Shown: positions 43,727-61,200 of the stretch, one piece after another
Layout: each line of letters opens with the position of its first letter
How positions within the stretch are numbered: the first letter of the stretch is position 1
Notes under the pieces: model-generated
The model's input: only the letters and a program-made list of their open reading frames with translations
The model's database searches: none
Told to the model about the DNA's origin: nothing
Made by a program: the position numbers and the translations under genes
Origin: Eubacteriales bacterium
GTDB lineage: Bacteria; Bacillota; Clostridia; Acetivibrionales; JANLFN01
NCBI GenBank assembly: GCA_024655885.1
Contig: JANLFN010000005.1
Span: forward strand, 116,007-180,006
Reading direction: 5' to 3'
Length of the DNA: 64,000 nt

Positions 43727-44164
43727 ATGAAAAAGGTGATTATTTATACGGACGGCGCATGTTCGGGAAACCCGGGAAAAGGGGGCTGGGCGGCTGTACT
43801 AAAATATGGCGAGAAAGAGAGAGAAATATCCGGTTTTGAAAATAATACCACCAATAACCAGATGGAGCTCAGGGCTGCAATTGAAGCGCTAAAATGTCTC
43901 AAAGAGCCATGTGAAGTGGAGTTATACAGTGACAGCGCCTATCTGATAAACGGCTTTAATAAAAATTGGCTGAAGAATTGGAAGCTTAACGGATGGATGA
44001 ATGCTGAGAAGGAAGCTGTAAAGAATATTGACCTTTGGAAGCAGCTGGACAGCTTGAACAATATACATAAAATCCGGTGGATTAAAGTCAAAGGCCATGC
44101 GGACAATGAATACAACAACCGGTGTGACAGGATGGCCGTAAACGAGATAAAAATGCATGAATAA
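43727..44164 (+). CDS. rnhA: ribonuclease HI
   Basis: Motifs [21 protein letters not shown] and DSAY are present. Confidence 0.9.
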
Positions 44165-44201
44165 TACGGCTTGCAGGAAAATATTATACGGAGGAAATAA
44201 G

Positions 44202-44750: not shown

Positions 44751-44816
44751 ACGGAAAACAATCTAAATGTCCTGAGGATTTATTGGCTGGTACCTAGAGG
44801 AGGGACTAGTTTACTT

Positions 44817-44855
44817 AAAAATTACTATACGGCGAATGTATAGTAATTTTTTTTA
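44817..44855 (+). terminator. rho-independent terminator (12-13 bp stem AAAATTACTATAC/GTATAGTAATTTT plus T-run)
   Basis: Read directly. Confidence 0.8.
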
Positions 44856-44914
44856 TTGGTACGGCATAGAATTCATAGTGAAGGGCGATAATTTCCTGGC
44901 GAAGAGGGGTTAAA

Positions 44915-45556: not shown

Positions 45557-45842
45557 TGTATAAATATGGTAACATGTGTAAATAATATTGATTAAAGTTA
45601 AGTAAATAGCATGCTATTGGTGGAGAAGTTCGACAAAACGCCAGCGGCGATAAAGCTTGAAAAGGAATTTTATTATATACAGAATGTTACTGAAATAAGA
45701 AAAATCTATATCTTTAGAAAGTTTTTCTTTAAAAATAGAAAAAAATGTATTAAAATCAATGTATACATTTGGCTTAATTGAAATAAATTATTGAACTGTA
45801 AATAGATTACCGGAGAAATTCAAAAAAAGGGGTAGTTTTTTA

Positions 45843-46727
45843 ATGGAAGCATTAGTTCAAAAGTTCGTAAATTTTTTAGAAATGGATAAGCGGCTATCTT
45901 TAAATACCTTGCAATCGTACAGGAGAGACATAGAACAGTACATGACCTATTTGCGCGAAATAAATCTGCACAATATATCCAACACCAATAAAACCACTGT
46001 AATTGCATATCTTCTATACCTGCAGAAAAAAGGGAGGGCTACATCCACCATTTCAAGGAATCTGGCCTCCATCAGGTCCTTTTACCAGTACATAGCCAAA
46101 AATAAGATTATTGACCACGACCCTACCGCTGAGCTTGAATCGCCCAAGGTCGAAAAGAAGCTGCCGCAGATACTTTCCACCAAAGAAGTGGAGCTGCTGC
46201 TGGAGCAGCCCAAGTGTGTAGACCTTAAAGGGTACAGGGACAAAGCAATGCTGGAACTGCTTTATGCTACAGGAATCAGGGTATCGGAGCTTATATGCCT
46301 CAACGTGTCCGATATAAACCTTGATATGGGGTTTATCAGGTGCAACAAGGGTTCCAGGGAAAGGATGATCCCCATAGGCTCAATGGCCATAGCCGCTCTG
46401 CAGGAGTATCTCAGCAAATCCAGGCAGCTTTTAATACAAAAAAGCGATGAAAAAGCCCTCTTCGTGAATATAAACGGGAGAAGGCTTACCAGGCAGGGTT
46501 TTTGGAAGATAATCAAGCAGTATAAGAATCAGGCCAAGATAAACAAGGATATTACACCTCATACTTTAAGACACTCGTTTGCCGCACATTTGCTTGAAAA
46601 CGGCGCGGATTTGAGGTCCATACAGGAGATGCTCGGCCATTCGGATATTTCATCCACCCAGATTTATGCGCAAATTGCAAAAAACAGGATAAAGGAGATA
46701 TACAAGAAAACGCACCCCAGAGCCTGA
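45843..46727 (+). CDS. xerD: site-specific tyrosine recombinase XerD
   Basis: 294 aa. The R...HxLRH...Y catalytic pattern is present (ATGIRVSEL, HTLRHSFAAHLL, LGHSDISSTQIY). Confidence 0.9.
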   Translation: MEALVQKFVNFLEMDKRLSLNTLQSYRRDIEQYMTYLREINLHNISNTNKTTVIAYLLYLQKKGRATSTISRNLASIRSFYQYIAKNKIIDHDPTAELESPKVEKKLPQILSTKEVELLLEQPKCVDLKGYRDKAMLELLYATGIRVSELICLNVSDINLDMGFIRCNKGSRERMIPIGSMAIAALQEYLSKSRQLLIQKSDEKALFVNINGRRLTRQGFWKIIKQYKNQAKINKDITPHTLRHSFAAHLLENGADLRSIQEMLGHSDISSTQIYAQIAKNRIKEIYKKTHPRA

Positions 46728-46977
46728 AAAAGCCCTCTAGGGCTGAGCACGACGAGGGAGAAAACACGGCAAAATGAAAGTTATGGCGGTATAACCCTGG
46801 GATACGATTAAAGTAAATATAGAGTTAAAAATATAGAGGACATTCCATGAAAAGACTGGTTTGTCCTCTTCATATTTGTGGTAATATATATCCGTAACTT
46901 AACTTTCCCGCTTTGAATAAAGCAGCTGCCGACGAGGTCTAATGTTGAACGACTCTATAGAAATGGAGGAATTTGCT

Positions 46978-48153
46978 ATGAAAAGGGCAATCATTATGGT
47001 AATGGACAGTGTAGGCTTTGGAGAACTGCCGGATGCGGAGAGGTATGGAGACAAGGGGAGCAACACGCTGGCCCATATTGCTTCGCAGATAGAGGGCTAC
47101 AGGCTTCCCAACCTTGAGAGGCTGGGGCTGGGAAATATGGATGGGGCAAAGGGATACGCGAGGGAAGACCGCCCTGTCGGGTGTTATGGCAGGATGGCGG
47201 AGGCCTCCCCGGGGAAGGACACTACAACGGGGCACTGGGAGATGATGGGGATTATTCTGGAAAAGCCTTTTCCCACATACCCAAATGCCTTTCCCCGTGA
47301 ACTCATCGAAGCCTTTGAGAAGGCCATCCATACAAAGACCATTGGAAATGTGGTGGCCTCGGGAACCGAAATCATAAAACAGCTGGGAGAGCAGCACATG
47401 AAGACGGGATATCCCATTGTGTACACCTCCGCGGATAGCGTGTTTCAAATCGCGGCCCATGAAGAAGTGATCCCGGTGGAAAAGCTCTATGAGATTTGCA
47501 GGGTTGCCCGGGAGCTCCTGGTAGGCGAACACGCAGTGGGAAGGGTGATTGCCAGGCCCTTTGTAGGCACACCGGGTAATTTTGTCAGGACAGACCGCCG
47601 GCATGATTTCTCAATCAAGCCTATCGGCCCCACAATTCTTGACTATGCCGTGGAAAAGGGCTGCAGGGTAAAAGGCGTAGGGAAAATAAACGATATTTTC
47701 AGCGGGCAGGGAATTACGGATTCGATTCCCATCCATAACAACATGGATGGTGTGGACAAGACCTTGGATTATATGAAAGAAGAGTTTGAAGGGATTATTT
47801 TCACCAACCTGGTTGATTTTGATATGCTGTATGGGCATAGAAACGATGTAAGGGGGTATGCCGATGCCTTAACCGACCTGGACAACAGGATTCCCGGGAT
47901 AATGGATTCGCTGAGGGAGGACGACATCCTGTTCATTACGGCGGACCATGGTTGTGACCCCACAACTCTGAGTACCGACCACTCCAGGGAGTATGTACCC
48001 CTTCTGGTTTACGGGAAAAGGCTGAAGCAAAATATAAACCTGGGGACGAGGAAGACTTTTTCCGATCTTGGAGCTACTGTGGCAGAGTTCCTCGGCACCA
48101 GGAAGCCTGCCAACGGGACAAGTTTTTACAGGGATATAGCAATGATAGGGTGA
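46978..48153 (+). CDS. deoB: phosphopentomutase
   Basis: The N-terminus [12 protein letters not shown] and the TADHGCDP motif are present. ATG 46978 follows GGAGGA. Confidence 0.92.
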
Positions 48154-48256
48154 AAAGAGTATACTCGCGGTATTATTACAGCAAAGGCACTATTTTTCAT
48201 GTTTGCCCATGTTTCCCCATGTATATTTAAAATAAAGTAAGGATGTGAGAAAGCCT

Positions 48257-49579
48257 ATGCGGATGTATGACATTATTGAAAAAAAGCGGGATGGAAACGA
48301 GCTTTCCTACGAGGAGATCAGCTTTTTTATCAACGGATACTGCCGGAATGAAATTCCCGATTACCAGGCAGCCGCCCTTCTAATGGCCATATTCCTCAGA
48401 GGAATGAATGAACGAGAGACGGCGCAGCTGACAGAGGCAATGGCCAATTCGGGAGACAAGGTGGATTTGTCGCCCATAAGCGGTATTAAGGTGGATAAAC
48501 ACAGCACGGGCGGGGTGGGCGATAAGACCACCCTTATACTGGCACCCATTGTGGCGGCATGCGGCGTGCCTGTGGCGAAAATGTCGGGAAGAGGTCTTGG
48601 GCATACAGGAGGCACTATTGACAAGCTGGAATCAATTCCAGGATTCAGGACAGGTTTAACGCGGGATGAATTTATCGGAAATGTGAAGGAAATAGGTCTG
48701 GCTATAGCCGGTCAAACCGGAAACCTGGTTCCTGCGGACAAGAAGCTGTATGCCTTGCGTGACGTAACAGCCACAGTTAATAATATATCATTAATAGCGA
48801 GCAGCATAATGAGCAAAAAAATTGCCTCGGGTGCGGATGCAATTGTGCTGGATGTAAAAACAGGCAGCGGGGCTTTTATGAAAACTCTGGAAGATTCAAT
48901 CGCCCTTGCAGAAGCGATGGTGAAAATAGGCAGTAGTTTAGGCAAAAAGACTGTGGCGGTCATAACCGATATGGATGTGCCCCTGGGGAATGCGGTAGGG
49001 AACTCCCTTGAGGTAATGGAAGCCATAGACACCTTAAAGGGCATAGGTCCCGAGGACCTTCAGACGGTGTCTTTCGCACTGGCTGCAAAAATGCTGAAAT
49101 TAGCGGGTATGGGGAGTGAACAATACTGTAGTGACAGGATAAGAGAGGTAATAAGCAACGGGAGCGCCTTGAAAAAGTTCACCGAAATGATAGAACGGCA
49201 GGGAGGCGATCCCCGGGTGGTAAATGACCACAGCCTTTTTGACAGGGCATGCTTTTCTTATGAATTTATTTCTCCACAGGACGGTTTTATCCAATCCATT
49301 CAAACCGATCAACTGGGAGTGGCGGCGATGGTGCTGGGGACAGGAAGGGAAACCAAGGACAGCGGCATAGATTTCTCCGCCGGGATCGTATTAAGCAAAA
49401 AGACGGGATGCAGGGTGGCAAAGGGTGATTTACTGGCCACACTGTACACCAACCGGGAGGAAAAAATAAAAGAGGCCGTAAGGATACTGCACCATTCGTT
49501 TAAATTTGTGGAAACAGCGCCCCAGTCGAGGCCTCTTATTCTTGCCTATATAGATAAGGATACAATCAACCTCTCATGA
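48257..49579 (+). CDS. pdp: pyrimidine-nucleoside (thymidine) phosphorylase
   Basis: Motifs DKHSTGGVGDK and SGRGLGHTGGT are present. Confidence 0.92.
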   Translation: MRMYDIIEKKRDGNELSYEEISFFINGYCRNEIPDYQAAALLMAIFLRGMNERETAQLTEAMANSGDKVDLSPISGIKVDKHSTGGVGDKTTLILAPIVAACGVPVAKMSGRGLGHTGGTIDKLESIPGFRTGLTRDEFIGNVKEIGLAIAGQTGNLVPADKKLYALRDVTATVNNISLIASSIMSKKIASGADAIVLDVKTGSGAFMKTLEDSIALAEAMVKIGSSLGKKTVAVITDMDVPLGNAVGNSLEVMEAIDTLKGIGPEDLQTVSFALAAKMLKLAGMGSEQYCSDRIREVISNGSALKKFTEMIERQGGDPRVVNDHSLFDRACFSYEFISPQDGFIQSIQTDQLGVAAMVLGTGRETKDSGIDFSAGIVLSKKTGCRVAKGDLLATLYTNREEKIKEAVRILHHSFKFVETAPQSRPLILAYIDKDTINLS

Positions 49580-49808: not shown

Positions 49809-49855
49809 CCTTTTTGAGAGTGTTTTCGCATTCTTGAAAAGGGTTTTTTATTTTA
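49809..49855 (+). terminator. leader (attenuator-type) terminator ~20 nt upstream of the hydG RBS
   Basis: The 11-bp stem CCTTTTTGAGA / TCTTGAAAAGG includes two G-U pairs and has a 12-nt loop. It is followed by G and TTTTTTATTTT. Confidence 0.6.
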
Positions 49856-49875
49856 TAAAAAGGAAGTGTATATGG

Positions 49876-51324
49876 ATGAACTTTTTGGAGAAATACAAGA
49901 AAGATTTTGAAGAGTATGACAAAATGGACAGGGATTTTATCGACGACGATAAAATTTGGAGCCAGCTTGACAAGTGGAAAAAACCAAGCAAAGCAGATGT
50001 CCGCATGGTATTAAAAAAGGCGGAGCAGAAAATCAGGCTGGACCCCGAAGAGACGGCCATCCTTATCCAGAACAAGGACCGGGAAACTATCGAGGAGATG
50101 TACGCTTTGGCAAACAAGCTGAAGAGGGAGGTGTACGGGGATCGCATCGTTTTCTTCGCTCCCCTCTATATAAGCGATGAGTGCGCCAACAATTGCAAGT
50201 ACTGCGGGTTCAGGAGCAGCAACCACTTGATAGAGCGCAAAACCCTTACCATGGACGAACTGGAGCAGGAAGTCAGGATAATGATAAACGAGGGGCAGAA
50301 GAGGACGGTCCTGGTCTATGGGGAATCACCCAAAACGGATATTGATTTCATGTGTGAGACTGTAAAGAAGGTTTACAGCGTGAAGACTGAAAATGGCGAA
50401 ATAAGAAGAGCCAACATAAACTGCGCTCCTCTTGCAAGAGAAGAGCTGGCTAAATTTAAAAAGGTGGGGATAGGAACTTTTCAGGTCTTTCAAGAAACCT
50501 ACCATCATGAGACTTACAGGAAAATGCATCCTGCCAACACCATTAAGGGGCATTACAGGTGGCGCTTGTATGCACAGGACCGTGCCCAGGATGCAAAAAT
50601 TGACGACGTAGCCATCGGGGTGCTGTTTGGACTTTATGACTGGCGGTTTGAAGTAATGGGGCTTTTATACCATACAATACACCTGGAAGAAAAATATAAC
50701 GGGGTAGGTCCTCATACCATATCTTTCCCTCGGATTACACCGGCCATCGGGACACCGTACTCGGATCATCCGGAGTATGCGGTGAGCGATGAGGATTTCA
50801 AAAAACTGGTCGCTATTTTAAGGCTTTCGGTACCCTATACAGGCTTGATTTGTACTGCCAGGGAAAGCGATGAAGTGAGGAGGGAAGTAATCCAGTTAGG
50901 TGTGTCACAGATTGACGCAGGTACAAGAATTGGTGTTGGGGGCTACAGTAAATCCATGGGGAACCAGCTACCGGACAAAGAGCAGTTCTCTTTGGGAGAT
51001 ATACGCACACTTGACGATGTTGTGCGTGAAACCTGTTCAATGGACAGCATACCGTCCTTCTGTACGGCCTGTTACCGCAAGGGAAGGACCGGCGAAAACT
51101 TCATGGGATACGCGAAATCCAAATTCGTACACAATTTCTGCATACCCAATGCAATTTTTACCTTTAAGGAATATCTGATGGACTACGCCTCCGAGGAGAC
51201 CAGAAAAATAGGCGCAAGAGTGATAGAAGAACACGTGGCTAGGTTCAAGGGGGAAAAGGTGTATGACATAATAATAAAAAATCTGGAGCGGCTTGAAAAG
51301 GGTGAAAGGGACCTGCACATATAA
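49876..51324 (+). CDS. hydG: [FeFe]-hydrogenase H-cluster maturase HydG (radical SAM tyrosine lyase)
   Basis: Radical-SAM motif CANNCKYCGF and the C-terminal auxiliary cluster motif CTACYRKGRTGE, at HydG-typical length. Confidence 0.9.
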   Translation: MNFLEKYKKDFEEYDKMDRDFIDDDKIWSQLDKWKKPSKADVRMVLKKAEQKIRLDPEETAILIQNKDRETIEEMYALANKLKREVYGDRIVFFAPLYISDECANNCKYCGFRSSNHLIERKTLTMDELEQEVRIMINEGQKRTVLVYGESPKTDIDFMCETVKKVYSVKTENGEIRRANINCAPLAREELAKFKKVGIGTFQVFQETYHHETYRKMHPANTIKGHYRWRLYAQDRAQDAKIDDVAIGVLFGLYDWRFEVMGLLYHTIHLEEKYNGVGPHTISFPRITPAIGTPYSDHPEYAVSDEDFKKLVAILRLSVPYTGLICTARESDEVRREVIQLGVSQIDAGTRIGVGGYSKSMGNQLPDKEQFSLGDIRTLDDVVRETCSMDSIPSFCTACYRKGRTGENFMGYAKSKFVHNFCIPNAIFTFKEYLMDYASEETRKIGARVIEEHVARFKGEKVYDIIIKNLERLEKGERDLHI

Positions 51325-51365
51325 AGCTTGAAACTAAATAGACAAGGAGTAAATAAAGGGAACGT

Positions 51366-52421
51366 ATGGGGGATTTGAAAGGGCTAATTGACAAACTATA
51401 CCGGAGCAATCGTCTTAATGAGGATGAGTTGCTTGAGCTTCTCGACAACATGAATGAGGAAAGCAGGAAATATCTTATGGGGAAAGCCCATGAAACCAGG
51501 GTCAAGCATTATGGCACCAGGGTTTATTTGAGAGGGCTGGTTGAGTTTACCAATTACTGCAGAAGGGACTGCATTTACTGCGGTATCAGGGCTTCAAACA
51601 GGAATGCCGAAAGGTACAGGCTGTCCGTCCAGCAGATACTGCTAGCCTGTGAAGAAGGCTACAGGCTCGGCTACAGGACCTTTGTCCTGCAGGGAGGGGA
51701 GGATGGCTTTTATACAGATGAAAAAATCATAGAAATTATAAAAGAAATCAAAAAGAGATTCCCTTCCTGTGCAATTACTCTTTCCATTGGCGAGAAATCT
51801 TTTGAGTCTTACAAAAAATATTATGATGCCGGGGCCGACAGGTATCTGTTAAGGCATGAAACTGCTTCCAGACGCTTGTATGACAGCCTTCATCCGGGCA
51901 TGAGCTTTGATAACAGGATGCGGTGCCTGTGGGATCTTAAAAAAATCGGATACCAGGTTGGCGCAGGTTTCATGGTAGGACTTCCAAAACAGACCAACAG
52001 GGATTATGTAGAGGACCTGTGCTTTTTGAAAGAGTTTCAACCCCACATGGTTGGGATCGGTCCCTTTATTCCGCATAAGGAGACTCCGCTGGCAAAAGAA
52101 AGCAGGGGGACCGTTGAAATGACTGTAACATTGCTTGCCATTATCAGGCTGCTTTTGCCGGAGGTGCTTTTGCCTGCCACTACTGCCCTGGGCACCATAG
52201 ACCCCATGGGCAGGGAGAAGGGATTGAAAGCGGGGGCAAATGTGGTGATGCCCAACCTGTCACCTTTAGAGGTAAGGGAAAAATATGCCCTCTATGACGG
52301 TAAGGTCTGTACCGGGGAAGAGGCTGCCGAATGCAGGCAGTGTATTGACAGCAGGATTGTGTATGCCGGATTTGTCCCTGATATGTCCAGGGGAGACAGT
52401 ATATTATGGGAAAGGAAATAA
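51366..52421 (+). CDS. hydE: [FeFe]-hydrogenase H-cluster maturase HydE (radical SAM)
   Basis: Motif CRRDCIYCGIR, BioB-like fold length (351 aa), adjacent to hydG. Confidence 0.88.
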   Translation: MGDLKGLIDKLYRSNRLNEDELLELLDNMNEESRKYLMGKAHETRVKHYGTRVYLRGLVEFTNYCRRDCIYCGIRASNRNAERYRLSVQQILLACEEGYRLGYRTFVLQGGEDGFYTDEKIIEIIKEIKKRFPSCAITLSIGEKSFESYKKYYDAGADRYLLRHETASRRLYDSLHPGMSFDNRMRCLWDLKKIGYQVGAGFMVGLPKQTNRDYVEDLCFLKEFQPHMVGIGPFIPHKETPLAKESRGTVEMTVTLLAIIRLLLPEVLLPATTALGTIDPMGREKGLKAGANVVMPNLSPLEVREKYALYDGKVCTGEEAAECRQCIDSRIVYAGFVPDMSRGDSILWERK

Positions 52422-53804: not shown

Positions 53805-53817
53805 AGCCGCCAAAAAA

Positions 53818-53850
53818 GCCCTTCCGGCAAAAGTCGGGAAGGGCTTTTTT
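53818..53850 (+). terminator. rho-independent terminator (GCCCTTCC/GGAAGGGC plus T6)
   Basis: Read directly. Confidence 0.85.
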
Positions 53851-53997
53851 GACGTGCATAAATATATCGCCCGTGGAAGGCGTATAATATGTTGTTGTTG
53901 AAAAACATTGGGTTTTATGATATTTTATAATGCATAAGAACATAAAAATGTTAGCAGATGGGAAAAGATATACTTATGGCCGGCAAGAGGATGACCA

Positions 53998-55110
53998 ATG
54001 GTTGAATACGAAAGAACATTAAGAAAAATGTCTGTGGGGGATATACTGGATTATTCCCTGGAGGTTTACAAAAAAGACTTTAAAAAGCTGACACTTCTGG
54101 CTCTGATATTTTATGTCCCGTTTATGGTCCTGTATACAGCCGTTGTGAGCTATGTGTCGGGGGAACTTCTGAACTCCGCCGAGGTAAAAGGGGCTACGGT
54201 TTTCCACTCCTTCCACTTCCTCAAAAGCTTTTCTGGTCTTGCGGTTTTCGGCGCAAACGGTATAAACCGGTATCCCGGCAGTCCGGGAGAGTTTACCTAT
54301 ATGCTTTTAGCTTATTATCTGGTGCTCCTTTTGGTAAGTCTTGTGTATTTCGCATACACAATCACGCTGAAACCTGTGATGGACACGGCCATAATCAAAA
54401 TTGTGTACGCCGATGTCGTATACGGCCGGGAGCAGGGATTGAAGGAGACAGTCAGGGAGGCTTTTAAAAGGTTTCCAAGGCTGGTTGCCAATAGGCTGCT
54501 CTATGGGCTTATTGTATTTGGGGCTTTCCTGGGCGTGTATATTCTCTTTATAGTTTTTTTTGTAGTTTTGCTTCTGAGTTCATCTGCATGGCTTTTAAGC
54601 GGAGTGTTTTCGCGGCCCGCTGGCCCAGTGGGAAATGTAGCGCTGGCTATGGGCATTTCTGTTGTCGTGCTTGTTGTAATCATGGCCATGGGCTTGTTTG
54701 TGGCTTTTTTTGCCCTTAAGTTCGGATTCGGCCTGCAGGCTGTTGTAATTGAAAATAAAGGGGCGGTGGAGGGGCTGTCGCGAAGCTGGAGATTGACAGG
54801 AAAAAATTTCTGGCATATTTTATTCAGCAGCCTTTTCGGCGCGTTATTATTTTTTACGGTGCCCGCCCTTTTGTCCGCAGGGGTGTCGGTGCTCATAGAG
54901 GTAAACAAGGCTTTGTACACCCTCCTGGCAACGGTTGTCCAGGTTGTGGCTTCCCTTGCATACCCCTACCTTACGGTCCTTATGACCATGGTGTTTATAA
55001 ACCTGAAGATAAAAAAGGAAGGCTTAGACCTGGAAGTGAAAGTGGATAAGCTGCTGGAAGCCCAGCAGGCGGAAGAACAAAAAGGACTGGAACTGGAAAA
55101 TGGTGAATAA
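53998..55110 (+). CDS. polytopic membrane protein (resembles the membrane domain found on some glycerophosphodiester phosphodiesterases), first gene of the MoxR operon
   Basis: 370 aa with ~7 hydrophobic spans. The 3' end overlaps the next gene. Confidence 0.6.
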   Translation: MVEYERTLRKMSVGDILDYSLEVYKKDFKKLTLLALIFYVPFMVLYTAVVSYVSGELLNSAEVKGATVFHSFHFLKSFSGLAVFGANGINRYPGSPGEFTYMLLAYYLVLLLVSLVYFAYTITLKPVMDTAIIKIVYADVVYGREQGLKETVREAFKRFPRLVANRLLYGLIVFGAFLGVYILFIVFFVVLLLSSSAWLLSGVFSRPAGPVGNVALAMGISVVVLVVIMAMGLFVAFFALKFGFGLQAVVIENKGAVEGLSRSWRLTGKNFWHILFSSLFGALLFFTVPALLSAGVSVLIEVNKALYTLLATVVQVVASLAYPYLTVLMTMVFINLKIKKEGLDLEVKVDKLLEAQQAEEQKGLELENGE

Positions 55111-55870
55111 ACCCGTGCCCCGTCTCAGATATATAAAAAATAGGGCAATGCCCTTTCTGGCTGTTGTTGTAGCAATCTCTACGCTGTTTGTTTCCCATGC
55201 CCAGGATTTTGATATTTCCCGCGAACGGGAGATAAGGGATAAAATTCAGGGAATACTATCCTCTGGAGAGTTTTCGCCCCCGGGCGGGGACGCCGGGATA
55301 CTTAAAAGTATTGCGGACAGAATAAAGGATTTTGCAGACTGGTTGAAAAGCCAGGTAGACAAATTGAAACTGCCGGACAACCCAGCGGCAATCAACGGCA
55401 GGGAACTATCGGCCGCAGAATCCGCGGTCCTCAAAATAACCGGTATTTTTCTTATTTTAGCATTCATAGGGGCCATCTTTTATTTTATAAAGAGAAACCT
55501 GAGTTTGTCAAAAAACTTGAAGCAGAGGGAGGACAACCTCCTCCTTACCACCATAAAGGACTATAAATCGGTGGAACAGAGGGCTTTTCAACATTACCAG
55601 CGAGGGGAGTACAGGCTGGGCATAAGGTTTTTGTATATAGCCCTTTTATTGCGGTTCAACGAGGTGAACCTGATACGGATAAACAAGTCCAAAACCAACA
55701 GCCAGTATTTGAAGGAGCTCTTCGATTATGGGTTCGGCAGGTATGAGACGGTGCGGGACTTTACCCTGTTTTTCAATGAAAGCTGGTACGGGAACAGAGA
55801 GGTGGACAGGGAAAAATTTGAGTTCTGGCTTGAGAAATACAACTTCCTTTTAAAGGTGGTTGAAACATGA
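55100..55870 (+). CDS. DUF4129-domain membrane protein
   Basis: Signal/TM segment, a central TM span and a C-terminal YRLGIRFLYIALLLRF...T..QY...F...WYG pattern typical of DUF4129. Confidence 0.65.
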   Translation: MVNKPVPRLRYIKNRAMPFLAVVVAISTLFVSHAQDFDISREREIRDKIQGILSSGEFSPPGGDAGILKSIADRIKDFADWLKSQVDKLKLPDNPAAINGRELSAAESAVLKITGIFLILAFIGAIFYFIKRNLSLSKNLKQREDNLLLTTIKDYKSVEQRAFQHYQRGEYRLGIRFLYIALLLRFNEVNLIRINKSKTNSQYLKELFDYGFGRYETVRDFTLFFNESWYGNREVDREKFEFWLEKYNFLLKVVET

Positions 55871-56907
55871 AGGATGTAAAAGGGGTAGGAAGAATTTTAA
55901 AAAGGATGCTGGCTTATTTTTTTATCCTTGGAGCCATTCTCGCAGCGGCGCTGATCCTGTATGCTTTCAGAAGGGGAGATACAAAGCCCGAGTATACTAC
56001 ATTCAGCAGCGGGAATAACGGAGTAAAAGCCCTGTATCTTTTAACGGCGCAAATGGGGTATGATGTAAAACGCTACGAGAGCACCTCCAGATTTCTTCCC
56101 GACAAGGTTACGCTTGTAGCCGTTAAGCCGGACATGAACGTATTTAACGCCAGCGCTGAACGGCGGTATTTAAAGGAATGGCTTTCCAGGGGAAATGTCA
56201 TGATTATTATTGATACTGCGGGAGAGCTGTCCCAATACCGGCTTAAAGAATTTTCCGGGCTGGAGCCCACCTTTATGGAAGAGGAGGCCGGCGACCGGGT
56301 GTACAGCGTAGGAAAAGGATCACTGATATTTTTAAATAACGTGGAGAGTTACACAAATCAGGGATTGCATGGTTACCGGGCGGGTATAAGGTTTATCCGG
56401 ATACTGGACGGGTTAAAAAACAATGAGGTTCTTTTCGATGAGTATTACCACGGCTTCGGCCAATCCGGCCTTACCCTGTGGGACCTGCTGGGGGCGACGG
56501 GGCGGCTGGTGGTGCTGCAGATGGTTTTAGGGATTATGGTGCTGATGCTCTCAAAAGCGGGAAGATTGGGCAAGCCCGTAACGGTTTTGGAGCTGGTTAA
56601 GAGAAGGGAAAACGAGAACCTGTATGCGCTGTCCAACTTATATGTGAAGGCAAAGGCAAACGGCACCGTTCTTCAAATACTGCTGGACGATTTCAAGCGC
56701 GATCTGTCGAAGCTTTTGGGCTGTGACAGCAGTGCAGGGGACAGCGAATTGACGGGCGCTGTTTCGGAAAACAAAGGACTTAGTAAAATGAGGGTGGGAG
56801 AAATCCTGGAGGAATGCGGGGATTATATCCGCCGCGGAAGCAAAGATACCAGGCTGCTGTTTAAACTGGCGGGAAAACTGGACAGGACAAGAAAGGGGAT
56901 AAAATGA
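55867..56907 (+). CDS. DUF4350-domain protein
   Basis: An N-terminal TM span is followed by NGVKALYLLTAQMGYDV. It is translationally coupled on both sides (ATGA overlaps). Confidence 0.6.
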   Translation: MKDVKGVGRILKRMLAYFFILGAILAAALILYAFRRGDTKPEYTTFSSGNNGVKALYLLTAQMGYDVKRYESTSRFLPDKVTLVAVKPDMNVFNASAERRYLKEWLSRGNVMIIIDTAGELSQYRLKEFSGLEPTFMEEEAGDRVYSVGKGSLIFLNNVESYTNQGLHGYRAGIRFIRILDGLKNNEVLFDEYYHGFGQSGLTLWDLLGATGRLVVLQMVLGIMVLMLSKAGRLGKPVTVLELVKRRENENLYALSNLYVKAKANGTVLQILLDDFKRDLSKLLGCDSSAGDSELTGAVSENKGLSKMRVGEILEECGDYIRRGSKDTRLLFKLAGKLDRTRKGIK

Positions 56908-57884
56908 TGGATAACGGGAATACTGCCGTGGATACCGAATTTACAAGGAATTTAAGCAAACAGATCATTGATGAAGTATCAAAAGCTGTTGTAGGACAGT
57001 ATGAATTTATTGAGCAGCTGGTTGTGGTCCTTCTCACGGGAGGGCACGTATTGATCGAAGGTGTTCCGGGCTTGGCGAAAACCCTTGCGGCCAAAGCGAT
57101 TTCCAAAACCGTCAGGGCGGATTTCAAAAGGGTTCAATTCACTCCTGACTTGATGCCTGCGGATATCATGGGGACCAAGGTCTATGATACAAAATCGGGA
57201 AGCTTTTACCTGAGGAGGGGACCCCTCTTTACAAATATTTTTCTTGCAGACGAGGTCAACAGGACTCCGCCCAAAACCCAGGCCGCTCTCCTTGAATCCA
57301 TGGAGGAAAGGTCTATCACCATAGACGGAGAAACCCACAGCCTCCAGGAGCCGTTTATGGTTGTAGCGACTCAAAACCCTGTGGAGTACGAAGGTACCTA
57401 TCCGCTGCCGGAGGCCCAGCTGGACAGGTTTATGATGAAGCTCACGGTTGATTACATACCGCAGAAATTTGAAAATATTCTCCTGGAAAAATACAACTCC
57501 GGCTTCAGCAGCTCCAGGCTGGAAGATGCGGACATTCATGCCGTATGCGGTCTTGAAGAAATTGCCCGGTGCCGTGAGGAGATACAAAAGGTAGAAGTGA
57601 ACAGTGGAATCATAAATTATATAACTTCCATCATCCGGGCCACCAGAAATTCGCCGGCCCTGATGCTGGGAGCAAGCCCCAGGGCATCCATATCCCTGCT
57701 GCTGGCATCCAAGACCTTTGCGGCAATCCAGGGGAGAAGCTTTGTTGTCCCCGAGGATGTGAAAGACCTGGCCCTCCCGGTGTTGAGACACAGGGTCATA
57801 CTGAAGCCCGAAGCCGGGATGGACGGGCTCAGCAACGACGATATAATAAGGAATATCCTAAGTAAGGTGGAAGTGCCGAGATAA
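56904..57884 (+). CDS. MoxR-family AAA+ ATPase
   Basis: Walker A is GVPGLAKT and Walker B is IFLADEVNR. The VATQNPVEYEGTYPLPEAQLDRF motif is characteristic of MoxR. Confidence 0.92.
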   Translation: MMDNGNTAVDTEFTRNLSKQIIDEVSKAVVGQYEFIEQLVVVLLTGGHVLIEGVPGLAKTLAAKAISKTVRADFKRVQFTPDLMPADIMGTKVYDTKSGSFYLRRGPLFTNIFLADEVNRTPPKTQAALLESMEERSITIDGETHSLQEPFMVVATQNPVEYEGTYPLPEAQLDRFMMKLTVDYIPQKFENILLEKYNSGFSSSRLEDADIHAVCGLEEIARCREEIQKVEVNSGIINYITSIIRATRNSPALMLGASPRASISLLLASKTFAAIQGRSFVVPEDVKDLALPVLRHRVILKPEAGMDGLSNDDIIRNILSKVEVPR

Positions 57885-58036
57885 TAGGTTGCTGAGGACT
57901 AAGTGCTGAGAAGCTGAAGAAAGGATTGGGATTAAGGTTAAATGAAGTAAACATCTCAGCCTTGTGAAACAAGAGAATCAGCATTCGCAGTGCGAATATT
58001 CAGCCTTTATTGAATGAATAGTACGGAGGAGTGTAA

Positions 58037-59347
58037 ATGCCTTTCAGCAGGTTGTTTGTCATACTGGTTTTGGCGGGCGTAGTGCCGGTTCTTGCGGCAG
58101 GCATGCTGGGTGCGGCTTTTTATGCCTTTATCCTGTACAACGGAATACTTATACTGCTTTTGGCGGTGGATTGGATCATCACGCCTGGGGGAAAGGCCTT
58201 TGAGGTCCTGAGGGAATGCGATGAAAAGCTGTCACTGGGATGTGACAATAAAATCGTTATCAAAGTGAGAAACAACAGCGATTATTCTTTTAACCTTGAA
58301 CTGAGGGATACAGTACCCTTGTTTTTCAAAGTAAACAATTCTACGGTAAAAATCAAGGCGATTCCCCACCATGAAATTGACGGCAGGTATTCTGTCATTC
58401 CTGAAAAACGGGGAGAGTTCATTTTCGGGAATGTATACTGCCGATATGCCGGCCTGCTCAGTTTGTGCCGTAAAAGGGCGGAATTTGAGCTGGAACACAC
58501 CTGCAAGGTTTATCCCAACTTAAAGGACATGAGAAGGTTCAGGCTTGCAGCCTTGAAAAAAAGCCAGCTCTTGTACGGTGTGAAAAAAACAAAAGCCTAC
58601 GGCGAAGGCACCGAATTTGAGAGCCTCAGGGAGTACAGCCAGGGTGACGATTACAGGAAAATCAACTGGATGGCCACCGCCAGGGCCAATAAGCCCATAG
58701 TCAATACTTATACGCCGGAGAAAAACCAGCAGGTTTTTATACTGCTGGACAGCAGCAGGGTGATGAATTCCGAAATCAACTCCATAAAGAAGCTGGACTA
58801 CTCCATTAATTCCTCCTTCCTTCTGGCGGAGGTGGCCGTTAAAAACGGGGACAACACGGGACTGATGGTGTTTGACAGCGATGTGCGGAGGTTTATCAAG
58901 CCGGGCAAGGGGATGGGGCACTTTCGGCTGATCGCCGAAAACCTGTATAATGTGGAAGAAAATCTTGTAACGGCAGACTACAAGGGGGCCCTGGTCTACT
59001 TAAACCAGCGCCAGAAGAGAAGGAGCCTGCTCTGTATTTTTACCGAGCTTTTTAATGCGGAGGAGGCACTGCGCCTGGCAGAGGCTTTGAAAAGCCTGGC
59101 ACGGCATCACCTGCCCCTTGTGATCACCATAAAGGATATGAGGCTCTATGAACTGGCGGAAAAGGAACTGAAAGAGGCGGAGGACATATTCTTAAAAGCC
59201 GCTGCCCTCAAACTGCTGGAGGAGCGTGAAAAGATTGCCGGGATTTTCAGGAAATCGGGAATCCCTTCCATGGATGTGCCGCCGGATAAGCTCTCCATTG
59301 AAGTTGTAAACAAATATCTGACCATGAAGTCCACACTGCAGCTATAG
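58037..59347 (+). CDS. DUF58-domain protein (vWA-like partner of MoxR) with two N-terminal TM helices
   Basis: The signature LREYSQGDDYRKINWMATAR is present. GGAGGAG RBS. Confidence 0.85.
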   Translation: MPFSRLFVILVLAGVVPVLAAGMLGAAFYAFILYNGILILLLAVDWIITPGGKAFEVLRECDEKLSLGCDNKIVIKVRNNSDYSFNLELRDTVPLFFKVNNSTVKIKAIPHHEIDGRYSVIPEKRGEFIFGNVYCRYAGLLSLCRKRAEFELEHTCKVYPNLKDMRRFRLAALKKSQLLYGVKKTKAYGEGTEFESLREYSQGDDYRKINWMATARANKPIVNTYTPEKNQQVFILLDSSRVMNSEINSIKKLDYSINSSFLLAEVAVKNGDNTGLMVFDSDVRRFIKPGKGMGHFRLIAENLYNVEENLVTADYKGALVYLNQRQKRRSLLCIFTELFNAEEALRLAEALKSLARHHLPLVITIKDMRLYELAEKELKEAEDIFLKAAALKLLEEREKIAGIFRKSGIPSMDVPPDKLSIEVVNKYLTMKSTLQL

Positions 59348-60307
59348 GTTAATGCCGCTGTCCCTGTGCCTGACATTGCAGAACAGAATGTAAAATGCCA
59401 GCAGCGTTAGTGTAAAGAAGGCAAACAGCAGTTTCAATTCTTCGGAAACGGGCAAGGGGGTTACATAGCCCTCAATCAGGCCGGCTACGACAAATACGGG
59501 AATGGTGCCGCAGACAAGCTTTACGGCGGCCTTGCCTTTCATTATAAAGGAGTCCTTCCGGGTGTAAACCCCCGGGTTTATTATGGAGTAGCCTATCATG
59601 AGTCCGGCTGCGCCGCACACAAAGATGGCGAAGAGCTCAAGGATGCCGTGGGGAAGAATGAGGGACCAGAATCTCAGGCCCGCACCGCTGTGATAGGCCA
59701 TTGCGCCCACCCCTCCCAGGATGAAGCCGTTGTACACCAGCAGGAAGGCGGTTCCGGCCCCAAGGGTTACGCCAAGTGCGAAAGCCCCCAGTCCAACCCT
59801 TATGTTATTGGTGAAAATGTAGCTTGACATCACCGTCCCATCCCAGGAACCGGAGCCGCCTTCGCCGGATCCCATGCTGTTGAGGATCTCCTGGGGCAAA
59901 AAGGCCGCCGCATTATCCGGCGACATCATGGTATAGATAAAGCTGACCGCCGAACCCAGTAAAAAGATGAGAAAAGAAAGGACGATGTAGGTTTTATACT
60001 GTCTCAAGAGCAGGGGAAAATCCTTTAATAAAAACAGCTTCAGCCTGCGGAGACTTGAGGTTTTCGGCAAATAGATAAAGCTGTGGGCTGAAGCTATAAG
60101 CCTGTTTAAATAGCCGGTAGTGCCGGTATTCCCGTAGTAGGTGCGGCTGTAGGATAAATGCCCGCATACCCGGTTATAGGCGGTGATAAAGTCGTTGAGT
60201 TCGTTCCCTTCCAGCTGTCCTAAACCTCCGTTTTTCAGCCTGGCCAGGGTTATCTCCAAGTATTTCCACGTCTTTGAATTTTCCTGTATAAACCTGTCCT
60301 CTTTCAT
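59342..60307 (-). CDS. SpoIIM-like (DUF95) polytopic membrane protein
   Basis: The HGILELFAIFVCGAAG motif is present. The gene is convergent with the DUF58 gene, and the two 3' ends overlap by 6 nt. Confidence 0.75.
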   Translation of the reverse strand: MKEDRFIQENSKTWKYLEITLARLKNGGLGQLEGNELNDFITAYNRVCGHLSYSRTYYGNTGTTGYLNRLIASAHSFIYLPKTSSLRRLKLFLLKDFPLLLRQYKTYIVLSFLIFLLGSAVSFIYTMMSPDNAAAFLPQEILNSMGSGEGGSGSWDGTVMSSYIFTNNIRVGLGAFALGVTLGAGTAFLLVYNGFILGGVGAMAYHSGAGLRFWSLILPHGILELFAIFVCGAAGLMIGYSIINPGVYTRKDSFIMKGKAAVKLVCGTIPVFVVAGLIEGYVTPLPVSEELKLLFAFFTLTLLAFYILFCNVRHRDSGINL

Positions 60308-60450
60308 ACTCTCTCCAAAATCCTATTCTTTTGAAATCAGCTGATTATATAAATTATATTTTAACAAAAACTATTTTTTGATACAATAGATGAGGTGGGA
60401 GAGTGGAAATGTATTGGATGGATTATATTACGTAAAAAGGTGGATGGTTG

Positions 60451-61200
60451 ATGAGAAAAATACTTGAGATACCGACTCCGGAAAATGTCCATGTGGACTA
60501 TGAGCTTGCAGGCCTGGGTTCAAGATTTGTTGCCCTGATCATAGACCATCTAGTTCAAATAGGAATGCTTCTTCTGGTTCTTATGGCAATGCTGATGGGT
60601 GGGGTGGATTTTAAAAACGCAGGAGAATACAATTCAGTGGTTGTGGCACTGGGAATTATCCTGGCTTTCGTGGTTTTATCCGGCTATTTTATATTTTTTG
60701 AGATGATTATGAACGGACAGACTCCCGGCAAAAAGGTGATGAAGCTGAGGGTAATCAAACAGAACGGTGAGCCGGTAAGCTTTTTCGATTCGTTCCTGAG
60801 AAATATTCTCAGGATTGTCGATATGCTCCCTTCTTTATATCTTGTGGGAGCTTGTTTTATAGTGTTTACAAAGTATTATAAAAGAGTGGGGGATTTTGCG
60901 GGGAACACCGTGGTGGTAAAAGTAAGGAAGGAGGAGAAGCCGGCAGGCCTGGACACCTTGCTCTCCAAAACGCCCTATGGGGGTGAAGGGGCCGCAGTTC
61001 CCAATGTTTATCCGGTAAACGATTTTGAATATGGGATATTAAAGGAATTTTTAGCCAGGAAGGATGGACTGGGGGAAAGGAAGCCCGTCTTTGCCTATCA
61101 TTTAAACCGGTACTTTATGTGGAAGTTTGCCATGGAGAAACCTGCGGAGGACCCCTATGCGTTCTTTGAAGACATCCTGAGAATGAATTCCGGGATGTAG
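60451..61200 (+). CDS. RDD-family membrane protein
   Basis: AGLGSRFVALIIDHLV...GQTPGKKVMKLRV pattern; divergent from the SpoIIM-like gene. Confidence 0.8.
   Translation: MRKILEIPTPENVHVDYELAGLGSRFVALIIDHLVQIGMLLLVLMAMLMGGVDFKNAGEYNSVVVALGIILAFVVLSGYFIFFEMIMNGQTPGKKVMKLRVIKQNGEPVSFFDSFLRNILRIVDMLPSLYLVGACFIVFTKYYKRVGDFAGNTVVVKVRKEEKPAGLDTLLSKTPYGGEGAAVPNVYPVNDFEYGILKEFLARKDGLGERKPVFAYHLNRYFMWKFAMEKPAEDPYAFFEDILRMNSGM

Follow-up and report, generated by a model that had tools for sequence, protein, structure and literature searches.

A widespread but uncharacterised MoxR/DUF58 membrane module in and beyond Clostridia: a four-gene core with a SpoIIM-like/RDD pair and a replaceable polytopic protein

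Do the seven genes at positions 53998-61200 of a 64,000-nucleotide stretch of Eubacteriales DNA (contig JANLFN010000005.1; hereafter the window) form a unit, and what might such a unit do? We show that the seven genes are an ordinary orthologue of an already known but uncharacterised module that is chromosomally encoded and widespread. It consists of a four-gene core and its usual companions, a SpoIIM-like(DUF8413)/RDD pair and a replaceable polytopic protein. A literature search returned no paper on the module, none assigning it a function, and none treating DUF4129 and DUF4350 together, in agreement with the initial annotation, which knew of neither a function nor a client. Parts of the neighbourhood were already noted by Makarova et al. 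2015 (PMC5898192) and are thus not entirely new: these authors described DUF4350+MoxR+vWA operons in archaea, likened DUF4350 to GldG of an ABC transporter, observed that bacterial SpoIIM homologues adjoin genes for vWA proteins and COG0714 ATPases, and predicted a ‘novel secretion system’ or membrane-remodelling complex for the DUF4350+MoxR+vWA combination.

Reading the locus base by base confirmed the annotated open reading frames and their overlaps. The first four genes, g1 (53998-55110, 370 aa), g2 (55100-55870, 256 aa), g3 (55867-56907, 346 aa) and g4 (56904-57884, 326 aa), lie on the plus strand with overlapping start and stop codons at all three junctions, in support of the proposed translational coupling. 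The g1/g2 overlap is 11 nt, and g2/g3 and g3/g4 share ATGA, with the ribosome-binding sites AAAGGTGG and AAAGGGGA upstream, respectively. Upstream of g1, the plus-strand intergenic region 53805..53997 contains, as consensus matches, a terminator-like hairpin belonging to the preceding DD-carboxypeptidase (dac) gene (53822-53848), a predicted promoter-like site of sigma-70 type with an extended -10 (53898-53926) and the ribosome-binding site AAGAGGA. A 152-nt plus-strand spacer (57885..58036), which terminates in the ribosome-binding site GGAGGAG, separates g4 from g5 (58037-59347, plus strand, 436 aa), and a further promoter-like site is predicted inside the 3′ end of g4 just before it (57820-57847). 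The spacer had been described as purine-rich; it exists but is unremarkable, with a mild purine bias (0.625 versus 0.542 for the region), an ordinary fold (z = -0.87), no Rfam matches and no conservation, the corresponding gaps in relatives measuring 11-53 nt. The convergent g6 (59342-60307, minus strand, 321 aa) overlaps g5 by the annotated 6 nt, a palindromic stop/stop CTATAG. The divergent g7 (60448-61200, plus strand, 250 aa), which has an equally good alternative ATG 3 nt downstream at 60451, would share with g6 a predicted control region (60308..60447) containing a promoter-like TTGAAA-18-TATATT on the plus strand (60331-60360).

The grouping goes beyond chance: the same genes were found together in 30 related loci, which belong to several phyla, and homologues number 2,228 clusters of 50% identity at E <= 1e-30. 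The wide distribution proposed for Firmicutes and Actinobacteria is borne out in Clostridia, Bacillaceae and Actinomycetota (Nonomuraea, Nocardia) and reaches further, to Alphaproteobacteria (Rhizobium, Paracoccus) and Bacteroidota (Prevotella), with the core also present in a cyanobacterium; across phyla the genes are co-conserved. Of 19 close Clostridia loci, 16 preserve the g1-g7 order together with the inversion of g6, as do locus L020, three Bacillaceae loci and Nonomuraea. Rhizobium and Paracoccus carry equivalent genes reordered on a single strand, where DUF805 comes first and holds the position of g1, and where the core and the SpoIIM-like/RDD genes are co-directional and overlapping. 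Prevotella has a reordered module with the SpoIIM-like gene first, and Nocardia an altered order. This recurrence in four phyla with differing gene orders argues for a functional linkage of the genes. M. tuberculosis seems to have the module as Rv3689-Rv3695: a table for M. chelonae equates DUF4350, MoxR, DUF58, SpoIIM and RDD with Rv3691-Rv3695 and a membrane protein with Rv3689. In M. chelonae the block is jointly down 64-500-fold, which, the genes being contiguous, could reflect a deletion rather than co-regulation.

The set annotated as a seven-gene module does recur, but its conserved core is four genes (g2-g5), from which the SpoIIM-like/RDD pair is separable; g1, outside the core, is replaceable. 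Within the stretches examined, the core (DUF4129-DUF4350-MoxR-DUF58) is present without the pair in a Gloeobacterales genome and three Clostridia loci in which DUF58 is followed by a trypsin-like protease, a DtxR-like regulator and FeoB (core alone: L024, L010, L017, L019; pair alone: L028, L031). Bernardetia and Arthrobacter carry the pair without the core within +/-9 kb, and the pair stays divergent even without MoxR.

Pfam profile searches against family cut-offs bear out the domain assignments, DUF4129 alone falling short of its threshold. As annotated, every product but the AAA+ ATPase is predicted to be membrane-anchored: hydropathy places transmembrane segments in six of the seven, with sidedness taken from hydropathy and the positive-inside rule only. 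The g1 product (GPDPase_memb, 33.5 bits; cut-off 29.6) is a polytopic protein of the GPDPase_memb/DUF7847 family with about 6-7 predicted helices, no phosphodiesterase domain and a C-terminal membrane-proximal motif, [KR]-x-E-[GA]-x-D-[LI], common to Firmicutes and Actinobacteria. The g2 product scores 24.0 bits for DUF4129, 0.8 bit under the cut-off of 24.8, and its Nocardia orthologue 44.7 bits. It is predicted to be bitopic, with an N-terminal signal/transmembrane segment (16-35), an outside segment (36-102), a second transmembrane segment (103-134) and a cytoplasmic DUF4129 domain that contains all of its conserved residues R176, E206, F225, Y230 and G231. The g3 product (DUF4350, 36.0 bits; cut-off 30.4) is likewise predicted to be bitopic: transmembrane segments at 10-37 and 207-233 flank an extracytoplasmic alpha/beta domain (38-206) of GldG/GIFT or glycosidase-trimerisation type, whose model matched GH164/GH42 middle domains (E about 6e-3) and the IFT52 N-terminal domain (E 0.34) in Foldseek. 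This outside domain has further conserved residues, and the most conserved motif of the family, R-x-G-K-P...K-R-x-E-N-E-N-L-x-A-L-S-N-x-Y, sits in the helical cytoplasmic tail. It coincides with the lowest-pLDDT stretch (232-252) of the AF2 model (pLDDT 78.9), as might be expected of a partner-bound segment.

The g4 product is a soluble MoxR-type AAA+ ATPase of the AAA_3 class with a lid domain (AAA_3 and AAA_lid_2, 216 and 84 bits). Its intact Walker A (GVPGLAKT) and Walker B (DE) motifs, conserved among relatives, and its closeness to PDB 2R44 (E 3.5e-86) predict an active enzyme. A predicted two-helix hairpin opens the g5 product (DUF58, 99.8 bits) and is followed by a soluble part with the DUF58/vWA-like domain, whose VWA_2 match (25.3 bits) lies below the cut-off; a sequence search gave no relative with a solved structure. 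Its MIDAS position is non-canonical (D238-S-S-R241-V-M), and the subfamily has D-x-[S/G]-R-x-M instead of DxSxS, degenerate in every lineage examined, with the first Asp the sole invariant position. The polytopic g6 product (SpoIIM, PF01944/DUF95, 133.6 bits) has in addition an N-terminal four-helix domain on the cytoplasmic side, DUF8413 (PF28475), and carries invariant polar residues (N168, N193, H220, E224, R250, E279) in or beside its predicted transmembrane helices; its AF2 model (pLDDT 89.9) has no fold match in the PDB (best E 1.1). The g7 product (RDD, 80.6 bits) is predicted to cross the membrane three times and to end in a soluble domain of about 109 aa.

MoxR/vWA pairs such as RavA-ViaA, NorQ-NorD and CbbQ-CbbO are remodelling chaperones. 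Tentatively, we favour a membrane-anchored MoxR/DUF58 remodelling machine that acts on the cytoplasmic tails of bitopic partners. A soluble MoxR ring would be brought to the inner membrane face by DUF58 and would engage the conserved cytoplasmic parts there, namely the DUF4129 domain of the g2 product and the juxtamembrane g3 tail, the latter predicted to be disordered when alone. ATP hydrolysis could then drive the assembly, gating or resetting of a membrane complex whose outward-facing part would be the GldG/GIFT-like domain, with the SpoIIM-like and RDD proteins as possible working membrane partners or clients. Cytoplasmic coupling is supported by the overlapping g1-g4 genes, by the conserved g2 residues and g3 tail motif, and by a single N. 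farcinica polypeptide that joins DUF4129, two transmembrane segments and the second transmembrane segment plus tail of DUF4350, without the outside domain. Because core and pair are each found alone in stretches examined, the pair would not be an obligatory client. The MIDAS is the usual client-binding site of vWA proteins, and its non-canonical form in this subfamily suggests that DUF58 here may operate differently from ViaA or NorD.

The strongest competitor, which we rate well below this machine, is that the SpoIIM-like and RDD proteins move or mature a peptide or protein across the membrane, powered or gated by MoxR/DUF58, as a housekeeping relative of circular-bacteriocin maturation and export or as the ‘novel secretion system’ of Makarova et al., whose prediction and whose comparison of DUF4350 with GldG favour it. 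DUF95 proteins are a hallmark of circular-bacteriocin clusters and are needed for maturation or export: mature bacteriocin builds up intracellularly in an lcyD knockout, and leader cleavage and cyclisation also implicate DUF95. The DUF95-type protein is common to those clusters and this one, but precursor peptide, ABC ATPase and immunity gene are absent here, intergenic open reading frames are <=15-17 codons, and no conserved candidate cargo gene was found nearby. The invariant polar residues of g6-type helices would suit such a role, although the g6 model lacks a transporter-like match in the PDB and the core occurs without the pair. In one metagenomic protein, next to an RND pump, a full SpoIIM-like domain is joined to an HlyD-type adaptor, but this fusion is a singleton cluster.

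It is unlikely that core and pair are independent, frequent neighbours with no common function. Each occurs alone in the loci named above, the two form separate transcription units in the window, and archaeal SpoIIM homologues mostly stand alone (PMC5898192). Against this, four phyla have the units side by side, arranged in at least three ways (convergent, co-directional and overlapping, SpoIIM-like first), and adjacency retained despite rearrangement is a classic signature of functional linkage.

Metal loading is a general precedent of the MoxR/vWA class, as in NorQ/NorD, CoxD/CoxE and CobS/CobT, and the initial annotation had raised metal-cofactor insertion; in this reading, MoxR/DUF58 would supply the metal to a membrane enzyme. 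The g4 product is weakly similar to chelatase ATPase subunits, far under the NCBIfam cut-offs. We consider this role improbable: the degenerate MIDAS weakens it, no conserved metalloenzyme or respiratory gene neighbours the module in any phylum examined, and HydE/HydG, which lie upstream and which dac separates from the module, are found in none of 24 related loci scanned.

A function specific to sporulation or the forespore membrane, hinted at by the initial annotation, is very improbable. The g6 protein falls in the SpoIIM Pfam family, and a SpoIIM gene also lies near in the window, but g6 is not itself SpoIIM: it does not match the NCBIfam equivalog TIGR02831, carries the extra DUF8413 domain and is a distant paralogue barely alignable with the genuine SpoIIM, encoded 9 kb upstream in the window (44915-45556; TIGR02831 168.5 bits, cut-off 100.2). 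The dac and M50 neighbourhood fares no better as a sporulation clue. Although dac lies 5′ of g1 in 17 of 19 close Clostridia loci (the other two lack upstream sequence), the linkage is limited to related Clostridia and missing in Bacillaceae and all other phyla, and M50 and TrpRS adjoin the module in only two loci. Bacteria that do not sporulate have the module as well (Rhizobium, Paracoccus, Prevotella, Nocardia, mycobacteria), and the site upstream of g1 is of sigma-70 type, a weak argument. Least probable is an anti-phage or conflict system: MoxR-vWA ternary conflict systems are on record (Kaur et al. 2020), g4 weakly matches the bpMoxR model (40 bits) and the g7 RDD domain the C-terminal part of the PADLOC PD-T4-6 model, but PADLOC gave nothing else for the seven proteins, a Pfam search found no nuclease, protease or TIR effector domain, and synteny around the module is stable in the core genome across Clostridia, with a distribution across those 2,228 clusters that looks vertical and housekeeping-like.

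Relatives of individual components have been tied, indirectly, to the cell envelope. In M. tuberculosis, MoxR1 helps export the peptidoglycan hydrolase RipA (PMC12067865), the divisome protein Rv0954 co-purifies both Rv3694c and Rv3695 in one co-immunoprecipitation list, and a D-cycloserine-resistant mutant carries an Rv3690 mutation plus a second mutation; members of PF01944 act as a scaffold for the SpoIID/SpoIIP wall hydrolases (PMC5898192). For the remodelling machine that we favour, the role would be a general envelope or membrane function, not one specific to sporulation.

The locus is a further member of a known, partly described MoxR-DUF58 membrane module. Its seven genes occupy 53998-61200 of the window and encode, in order, a polytopic membrane protein, DUF4129, DUF4350, MoxR, DUF58, SpoIIM-like and RDD proteins, with ORF coordinates that agree with the initial annotation. 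Translational coupling of the first four genes, also proposed there, is borne out at the base level: the first gene overlaps the DUF4129 gene by 11 nt, and the DUF4129/DUF4350 and DUF4350/MoxR junctions are ATGA start/stop overlaps with good ribosome-binding sites upstream. The 6-nt convergent overlap reported for the DUF58 and SpoIIM-like genes is the palindrome CTATAG (window 59342-59347), in which the stop codon of each gene overlaps the last codon of the other, and the RDD gene is indeed divergent, starting 140 nt from the SpoIIM-like gene on the opposite strand. Transcription arriving from both sides of the DUF58/SpoIIM-like junction must collide. Convergent 3' ends that overlap or abut are also present in the related loci L003, L004, L005, L014, L015 and L020-L023, and most Firmicutes loci have gaps between -23 and +40 nt. 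The roughly 150-nt spacer described between the MoxR and DUF58 genes exists (152 nt), but its purine richness is only mild (0.625 versus 0.542 for the region). Because relatives have 11-53 nt at this position, the spacer is not a feature of the module, and a regulatory RNA within it was rejected, as it has no Rfam match, folds unremarkably (z = -0.87) and is not conserved. The sole Rfam match in the window is a tRNA gene at 42504-42576 (-) (60.8 bits). The intergenic gaps of the module likewise hold no gene for a small bacteriocin-like peptide, the ORFs there spanning at most 17 codons.

Pfam recovers every domain assignment made initially, the DUF4129 call falling just below its cut-off. The first product matches GPDPase_memb (33.5 bits; cut-off 29.6), which refines its earlier description as simply polytopic; only the membrane domain is matched (PF10110 context), with no Pfam match to a catalytic GDPD domain, and the product is a stand-alone polytopic protein. 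The second product scores 24.0 bits (E 4e-5) against DUF4129 (PF13559; gathering cut-off 24.8), the positional orthologue from Nocardia reaching 44.7 bits and that from Rhizobium 21.6 bits. DUF4350 (PF14258) is matched at 36.0 bits (cut-off 30.4), with orthologues at 104 bits in Nonomuraea and 84 bits in Prevotella. The ATPase combines AAA_3 (PF07726; 216 bits over 131/131 profile positions) with AAA_lid_2 (PF17863; 84 bits), and the remaining products match DUF58 (PF01882; 99.8 bits, cut-off 23.4), SpoIIM (PF01944; 133.6 bits, profile positions 1-163 of 163) and RDD (PF06271; 80.6 bits, gathering cut-off 24.1). NCBIfam provides no name for any of the six membrane proteins.

Hydropathy predictions agree that all products except the ATPase are membrane-anchored, leaving MoxR as the sole soluble component. 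The first protein is predicted to have ~6-7 TM segments; the DUF4129 protein has a signal/TM segment, a 67-aa outside segment, a second TM segment and a cytoplasmic DUF4129 domain; and the DUF4350 protein has TM segments at residues 10-37 and 207-233 flanking a 169-aa outside domain, followed by a 113-aa cytoplasmic tail. DUF58 begins with a two-TM hairpin that leads into a positively charged soluble body, the SpoIIM-like protein carries a 104-aa soluble N-terminus before 5-6 TM segments, and RDD has three TM segments and a 109-aa tail. Profile alignments (hhalign) among the DUF4129 cytoplasmic part, the DUF4350 tail, the SpoIIM-like N-terminus, the RDD C-terminus and the DUF58 N-terminus gave probabilities below 10%, revealing no hidden homology. 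The first protein also ends in a membrane-proximal motif, [KR]-x-E-[GA]-x-D-[LI] (window 55060-55110; orthologues in related loci L001-L029), common to Clostridia, Bacillaceae, Nonomuraea and Nocardia, in which E341 is the only position conserved at 90% or more; this motif may belong to the GPDPase_memb/DUF7847 superfamily at large and not be specific to the module.

Across 30 sequences spanning five phyla, the MoxR Walker A (G53-V-P-G56-L-A-K59-T60) and Walker B (D116-E117) motifs are kept in 90% or more, and the protein aligns over residues 13-324 with its sole solved relative, the uncharacterized MoxR of PDB 2R44 (E 3.5e-86). A DUF58 gene lies directly downstream of MoxR in the window and in every locus carrying the MoxR gene. 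The canonical MIDAS, DxSxS, is absent from this DUF58 protein, which reads D238-S-S-R-V-M in the window; across the phyla sampled the position follows D-x-[S/G]-R-x-M, with D-x-G-R-x-M in lineages other than that of the window. Conservation is confined to D238 and R241; Ser never occupies the fifth position, where V, I, L, M, T, P or G is seen instead. In the DUF4350 protein (gene 55867-56907), the best-conserved stretch is R233-G235...R246-E250...A254-L255-Y259, or R-x-G-K-P...K-R-x-E-N-E-N-L-x-A-L-S-N-x-Y when written out, and this motif falls in the lowest-confidence part of the AF2 model (residues 232-252, pLDDT 39-51). Segments that fold on a partner typically combine high conservation with low model confidence in this way, and the coincidence suggests that residues 232-252 form a partner-binding segment.

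A genome scan with the DUF4350 protein alone returned nothing, and an alignment-based rescan of species-representative genomes yielded 24 loci. By profile searches, the order of five forward genes, a reverse SpoIIM-like gene and a forward RDD gene is kept in 16 of 19 close Clostridia loci; one locus (L014) is cut by a contig end, its remainder being consistent with the standard order, another (L016) has the SpoIIM-like gene on the same strand as the rest, and three (L010, L017 and L019) are without the SpoIIM-like and RDD genes. The standard order extends to a Clostridiales locus (L020) and three Bacillaceae loci (L021-L023). A wider survey, in which the SpoIIM-like protein was searched by tblastn against plasmids and chromids and the matching loci were annotated, traced the module further, in the standard and in rearranged layouts. 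In Rhizobium (51 records) and Paracoccus, genes for DUF805, DUF4129-like, DUF4350-like, MoxR, DUF58, SpoIIM-like and RDD proteins are co-directional and overlapping. Prevotella has RDD divergent from SpoIIM-like, followed by a polytopic ORF, a DUF4129-like ORF, DUF4350, MoxR and DUF58; Nonomuraea shares the layout of the window; and Nocardia farcinica carries a six-gene form. The first gene is replaceable: it is of the GPDPase_memb type in Firmicutes and Actinomycetota, Alphaproteobacteria have DUF805 in its place, and Prevotella has a polytopic ORF without an assigned family. The genes are co-conserved, a point on which the initial annotation had made its proposal depend, and the fact that they stay adjacent in four phyla, even where they are rearranged, argues strongly for a functional link between them. 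The DUF8413-SpoIIM-type family to which the SpoIIM-like protein belongs numbers 9,344 representatives at 50% identity (E <= 1e-3), or 2,228 at E <= 1e-30.

The closest described counterpart is the moxR2 cluster of M. tuberculosis, Rv3689-Rv3695, which together with its M. chelonae and M. abscessus counterparts matches the window in gene order and strand: the first five genes on one strand, SpoIIM-like convergent and RDD divergent from SpoIIM-like. This correspondence is drawn from a published M. chelonae table (PMC8191103) and from the Nocardia and Nonomuraea loci, the latter confirming the layout in Actinomycetota. The table lists a membrane protein (Rv3689), DUF4350 (Rv3691), MoxR (Rv3692), DUF58 (Rv3693), SpoIIM-like (Rv3694c, opposite strand) and RDD (Rv3695); Rv3690, which is not in it, would by gene order hold the DUF4129 position. 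The mycobacterial data on these genes are indirect: Rv3694c and Rv3695 were found in a co-immunoprecipitation of the divisome protein Rv0954, Rv3691 in a slow-growth TraSH screen, and a Rv3690 SNV in a D-cycloserine-resistant double mutant. In M. chelonae, BB28_RS01830-RS01900 comprises the module with glpK, glpF, padR and an SDR gene in one contiguous block that is 64-500-fold down in a double lysogen (PMC8191103, Table 4). We set these RNA-seq data aside as proof of co-expression, since a contiguous drop of this size would also fit a spontaneous deletion, a possibility that the paper does not take up. The SigF-dependent MoxR/DUF58 cluster of M. smegmatis, MSMEG_6606-6612, was left out of the evidence because it could not be matched to the module. 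No paper retrieved mentions both DUF4129 and DUF4350, and none describes the module, in keeping with the initial statement that its client has never been identified.

We tentatively favor a MoxR/DUF58 membrane machine with a general envelope function, for which RavA-ViaA, NorQ-NorD and CbbQ-CbbO serve as the working analogy. In such a machine, DUF58 would tether MoxR to the membrane, MoxR would build or reset a membrane complex by working on two cytoplasmic targets, the DUF4129 domain and the DUF4350 tail, and the SpoIIM-like/RDD pair would be the usual partner or client. M. tuberculosis offers a MoxR precedent, as Tat export of the hydrolase RipA is assisted there by MoxR1 (PMC12067865). In N. 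farcinica (AP006618.1, L032:4601-5635), DUF4129, two TM segments and the second TM segment plus tail of DUF4350 are parts of a single protein of 344 aa, which is without the DUF4350 extracytoplasmic domain. This fusion implies that DUF4129 and the DUF4350 tail share one side of the membrane and act jointly, and points to their coupling on the cytoplasmic side. The N. farcinica module is situated ~4 kb from fhaA-fhaB-pstP-rodA.

Two other groups of MoxR operons resemble the module in part. Bat (Bacteroides aerotolerance)/MRP-type operons, which have membrane or stress-tolerance phenotypes, also place an AAA_3 MoxR gene beside DUF58. In Bat operons, however, MoxR comes first and its partners are BatA/BatB vWA-TM and TPR proteins, whereas MoxR is fourth in the window and Pfam detects no BatA or TPR match among the seven proteins. 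TgpA/YebA-type MoxR-DUF58-transglutaminase triads and the bifidobacterial PFNA cluster share with the module the combination of MoxR, DUF58 and a polytopic partner. DUF4129 is typically the C-terminal domain of transglutaminase-like membrane proteins, which makes it a recurring companion of MoxR/DUF58. Unlike in the TgpA-type transglutaminase proteins, DUF4129 is carried by a small bitopic protein in the module, and Pfam finds no transglutaminase core in the seven window proteins.

An export or processing machine is an unlikely reading of the locus, and several likenesses bear on it. Archaeal arCOG01314 (DUF4350) operons share the DUF4350-MoxR-vWA/DUF58 trio with the module and were predicted to encode a secretion or membrane-remodeling complex by Makarova et al. 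2015 (PMC5898192), who also noted that bacterial SpoIIM homologs adjoin vWA and COG0714 ATPase genes. A GldG/flavodoxin-like fold of the DUF4350 outside domain is a further shared trait, with which our model agrees: the outside domain of the window protein (model pLDDT 78.9) shows weak Foldseek likeness to the alpha/beta middle domains of GH164/GH42 and to the IFT52 N-terminal (GIFT) domain, consistent with the HHpred result of the same authors. The archaeal operons differ in adding Ig-like or S-layer-type proteins and in being without DUF4129, SpoIIM-like and RDD, and Pfam detects neither an Ig-like nor an S-layer domain in the seven window proteins. DUF95 proteins of circular-bacteriocin clusters (LcyD, As-48) belong to the same Pfam family as the SpoIIM-like protein and are needed for peptide maturation and/or export. 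Beside the SpoIIM-like gene, Pfam identifies no precursor peptide, ABC-transporter ATPase/permease or immunity genes, and no bacteriocin plasmids appear among its tblastn matches to plasmids (E <= 1e-5). A JGI metagenome locus (3300056877, L033:9001-11064) encodes a 687-aa fusion of full DUF8413 and SpoIIM-like domains to an HlyD-type membrane-fusion module, with an RND pump gene directly after it; a MoxR-DUF58-BatA cluster of the Bat type lies on the opposite strand at a distance of 4 kb. The fusion is real in the assembly but forms a singleton cluster (two contigs) beside its own RND pump, and we treat it as a hint, not as evidence of export.

That the locus is two independent neighboring modules is distinctly less probable. 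On comparative grounds, the module is a four-gene DUF4129-DUF4350-MoxR-DUF58 core with a separable SpoIIM-like/RDD pair. A Gloeobacterales genome carries the core alone amid unrelated housekeeping genes, one Clostridia lineage (L010, L017, L019) has the core with no such pair after DUF58, and Bernardetia and Arthrobacter have the divergent pair alone within +/-9 kb. In one locus of that Clostridia lineage (L010:10424-14711), DUF58 is followed by a trypsin-like serine protease, a DtxR-family regulator and FeoB. Set against this split is the conserved adjacency of core and pair.

The pairs that provide the working analogy bear on a role in metal insertion. Each encodes a MoxR-class AAA+ ring beside a vWA-type adaptor, as the module does, and their adaptors, whose MIDAS is canonical, have soluble or respiratory enzymes as targets. 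The module differs in its degenerate MIDAS, its membrane-anchored adaptor and the lack of an enzyme client encoded nearby, and metal insertion is improbable as its function. The [FeFe]-hydrogenase maturases HydG (TIGR03955, 488.7 bits) and HydE (TIGR03956, 545.7 bits) are encoded at 49834-52421 (+), between nucleoside-salvage genes and a DD-carboxypeptidase gene.

A sporulation-specific role, hinted at initially from the gene neighborhood, is very improbable. The SpoIIM-like protein shares the full PF01944 profile with SpoIIM of the SpoIID/SpoIIM/SpoIIP engulfment machine, but it has no match in NCBIfam, including the spo_II_M equivalog TIGR02831, at E <= 0.01. A second PF01944 gene in the window, at 44915-45556 (+), encodes a 213-aa protein that scores 168.5 bits against TIGR02831 (cut-off 100.2) and is a genuine SpoIIM. 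It lies in a block with genes for a NUDIX protein (44157-44750), a XerD-like recombinase (45843-46727), a phosphopentomutase-like protein (46942-48153) and a pyrimidine nucleoside phosphorylase (48245-49579). The module protein has 321 aa, against the ~200-215 aa expected of single-domain SpoIIM, and its N-terminal extension is a 104-aa four-helix domain, DUF8413 (PF28475), a precomputed domain in its homologs. The two window proteins barely align (BLASTP E 3.2; hhalign probability 40%), and the low-confidence alignment places the invariant PHGxxE of the module protein opposite PKEIVI of SpoIIM. Proteins of the module type occur outside endospore formers, in Rhizobium, Paracoccus, Prevotella, Bernardetia, Nocardia and Nonomuraea. 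Given its failure against TIGR02831 and this poor alignment, the RefSeq-style name ‘stage II sporulation protein M’ is misleading for these proteins. The genuine spoIIM gene suggests that the source organism is probably an endospore former and that the module protein is a paralog.

Low-GC patches are present at 24001-26000 (0.358), 36001-38000 (0.362) and 44001-46000 (0.378) against a background of ~0.45, the last covering spoIIM and the beginning of the gene for the XerD-like recombinase. A 210-aa ORF at 41809-42441 (+) has no Pfam match at E <= 1e-5, overlaps the end of an opposite-strand DUF2520/Rossmann-like gene and may not be a real gene. An anti-phage defense system is scarcely credible and was rejected on the PADLOC result, which gave no match for six of the proteins and, for RDD, only one to the C-terminal domain of PD-T4-6 (24.6 bits).

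Experiments have touched on two roles of PF01944 proteins, the scaffolding of SpoIID/SpoIIP (PMC5898192) and circular-bacteriocin maturation or export. Sequence searches found no solved-structure relatives of the DUF4350, DUF58 or SpoIIM-like proteins. The model of the SpoIIM-like protein is confident (pLDDT 89.9, pTM 0.73), with a TM bundle that comes after an N-terminal four-helix bundle, and it has no PDB counterpart (the best Foldseek E, 1.1, is noise). It is conceivable, if something of a long shot, that the protein is no scaffold but a membrane-embedded enzyme or translocator that uses the invariant N168, N193, H220, E224, R250 and E279 together with RDD, with the core loading or resetting it as an ATP-driven switch. 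If so, the module would be an unrecognized, near-universal bacterial envelope machine with a housekeeping role, from which the engulfment scaffold SpoIIM and the protein for circular-bacteriocin maturation/export would both descend, and the presence of Rv3694c and Rv3695 at the mycobacterial divisome would be explained.

The window itself adds another member and no new biology, and it leaves the question no more tractable than before; what is useful is the division into core and pair, the misleading SpoIIM annotation, the degenerate MIDAS and the Nocardia fusion. Among MoxR systems the module ranks with the larger conserved unknowns, its SpoIIM-like part alone accounting for 2,228 clusters, and it is found in M. 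tuberculosis, rhizobial symbiosis-associated replicons and gut Bacteroidota. The identity of its client would give the MRP-type MoxR/DUF58 pair a second well-defined job and the PF01944, RDD and DUF4350 families a first general function.
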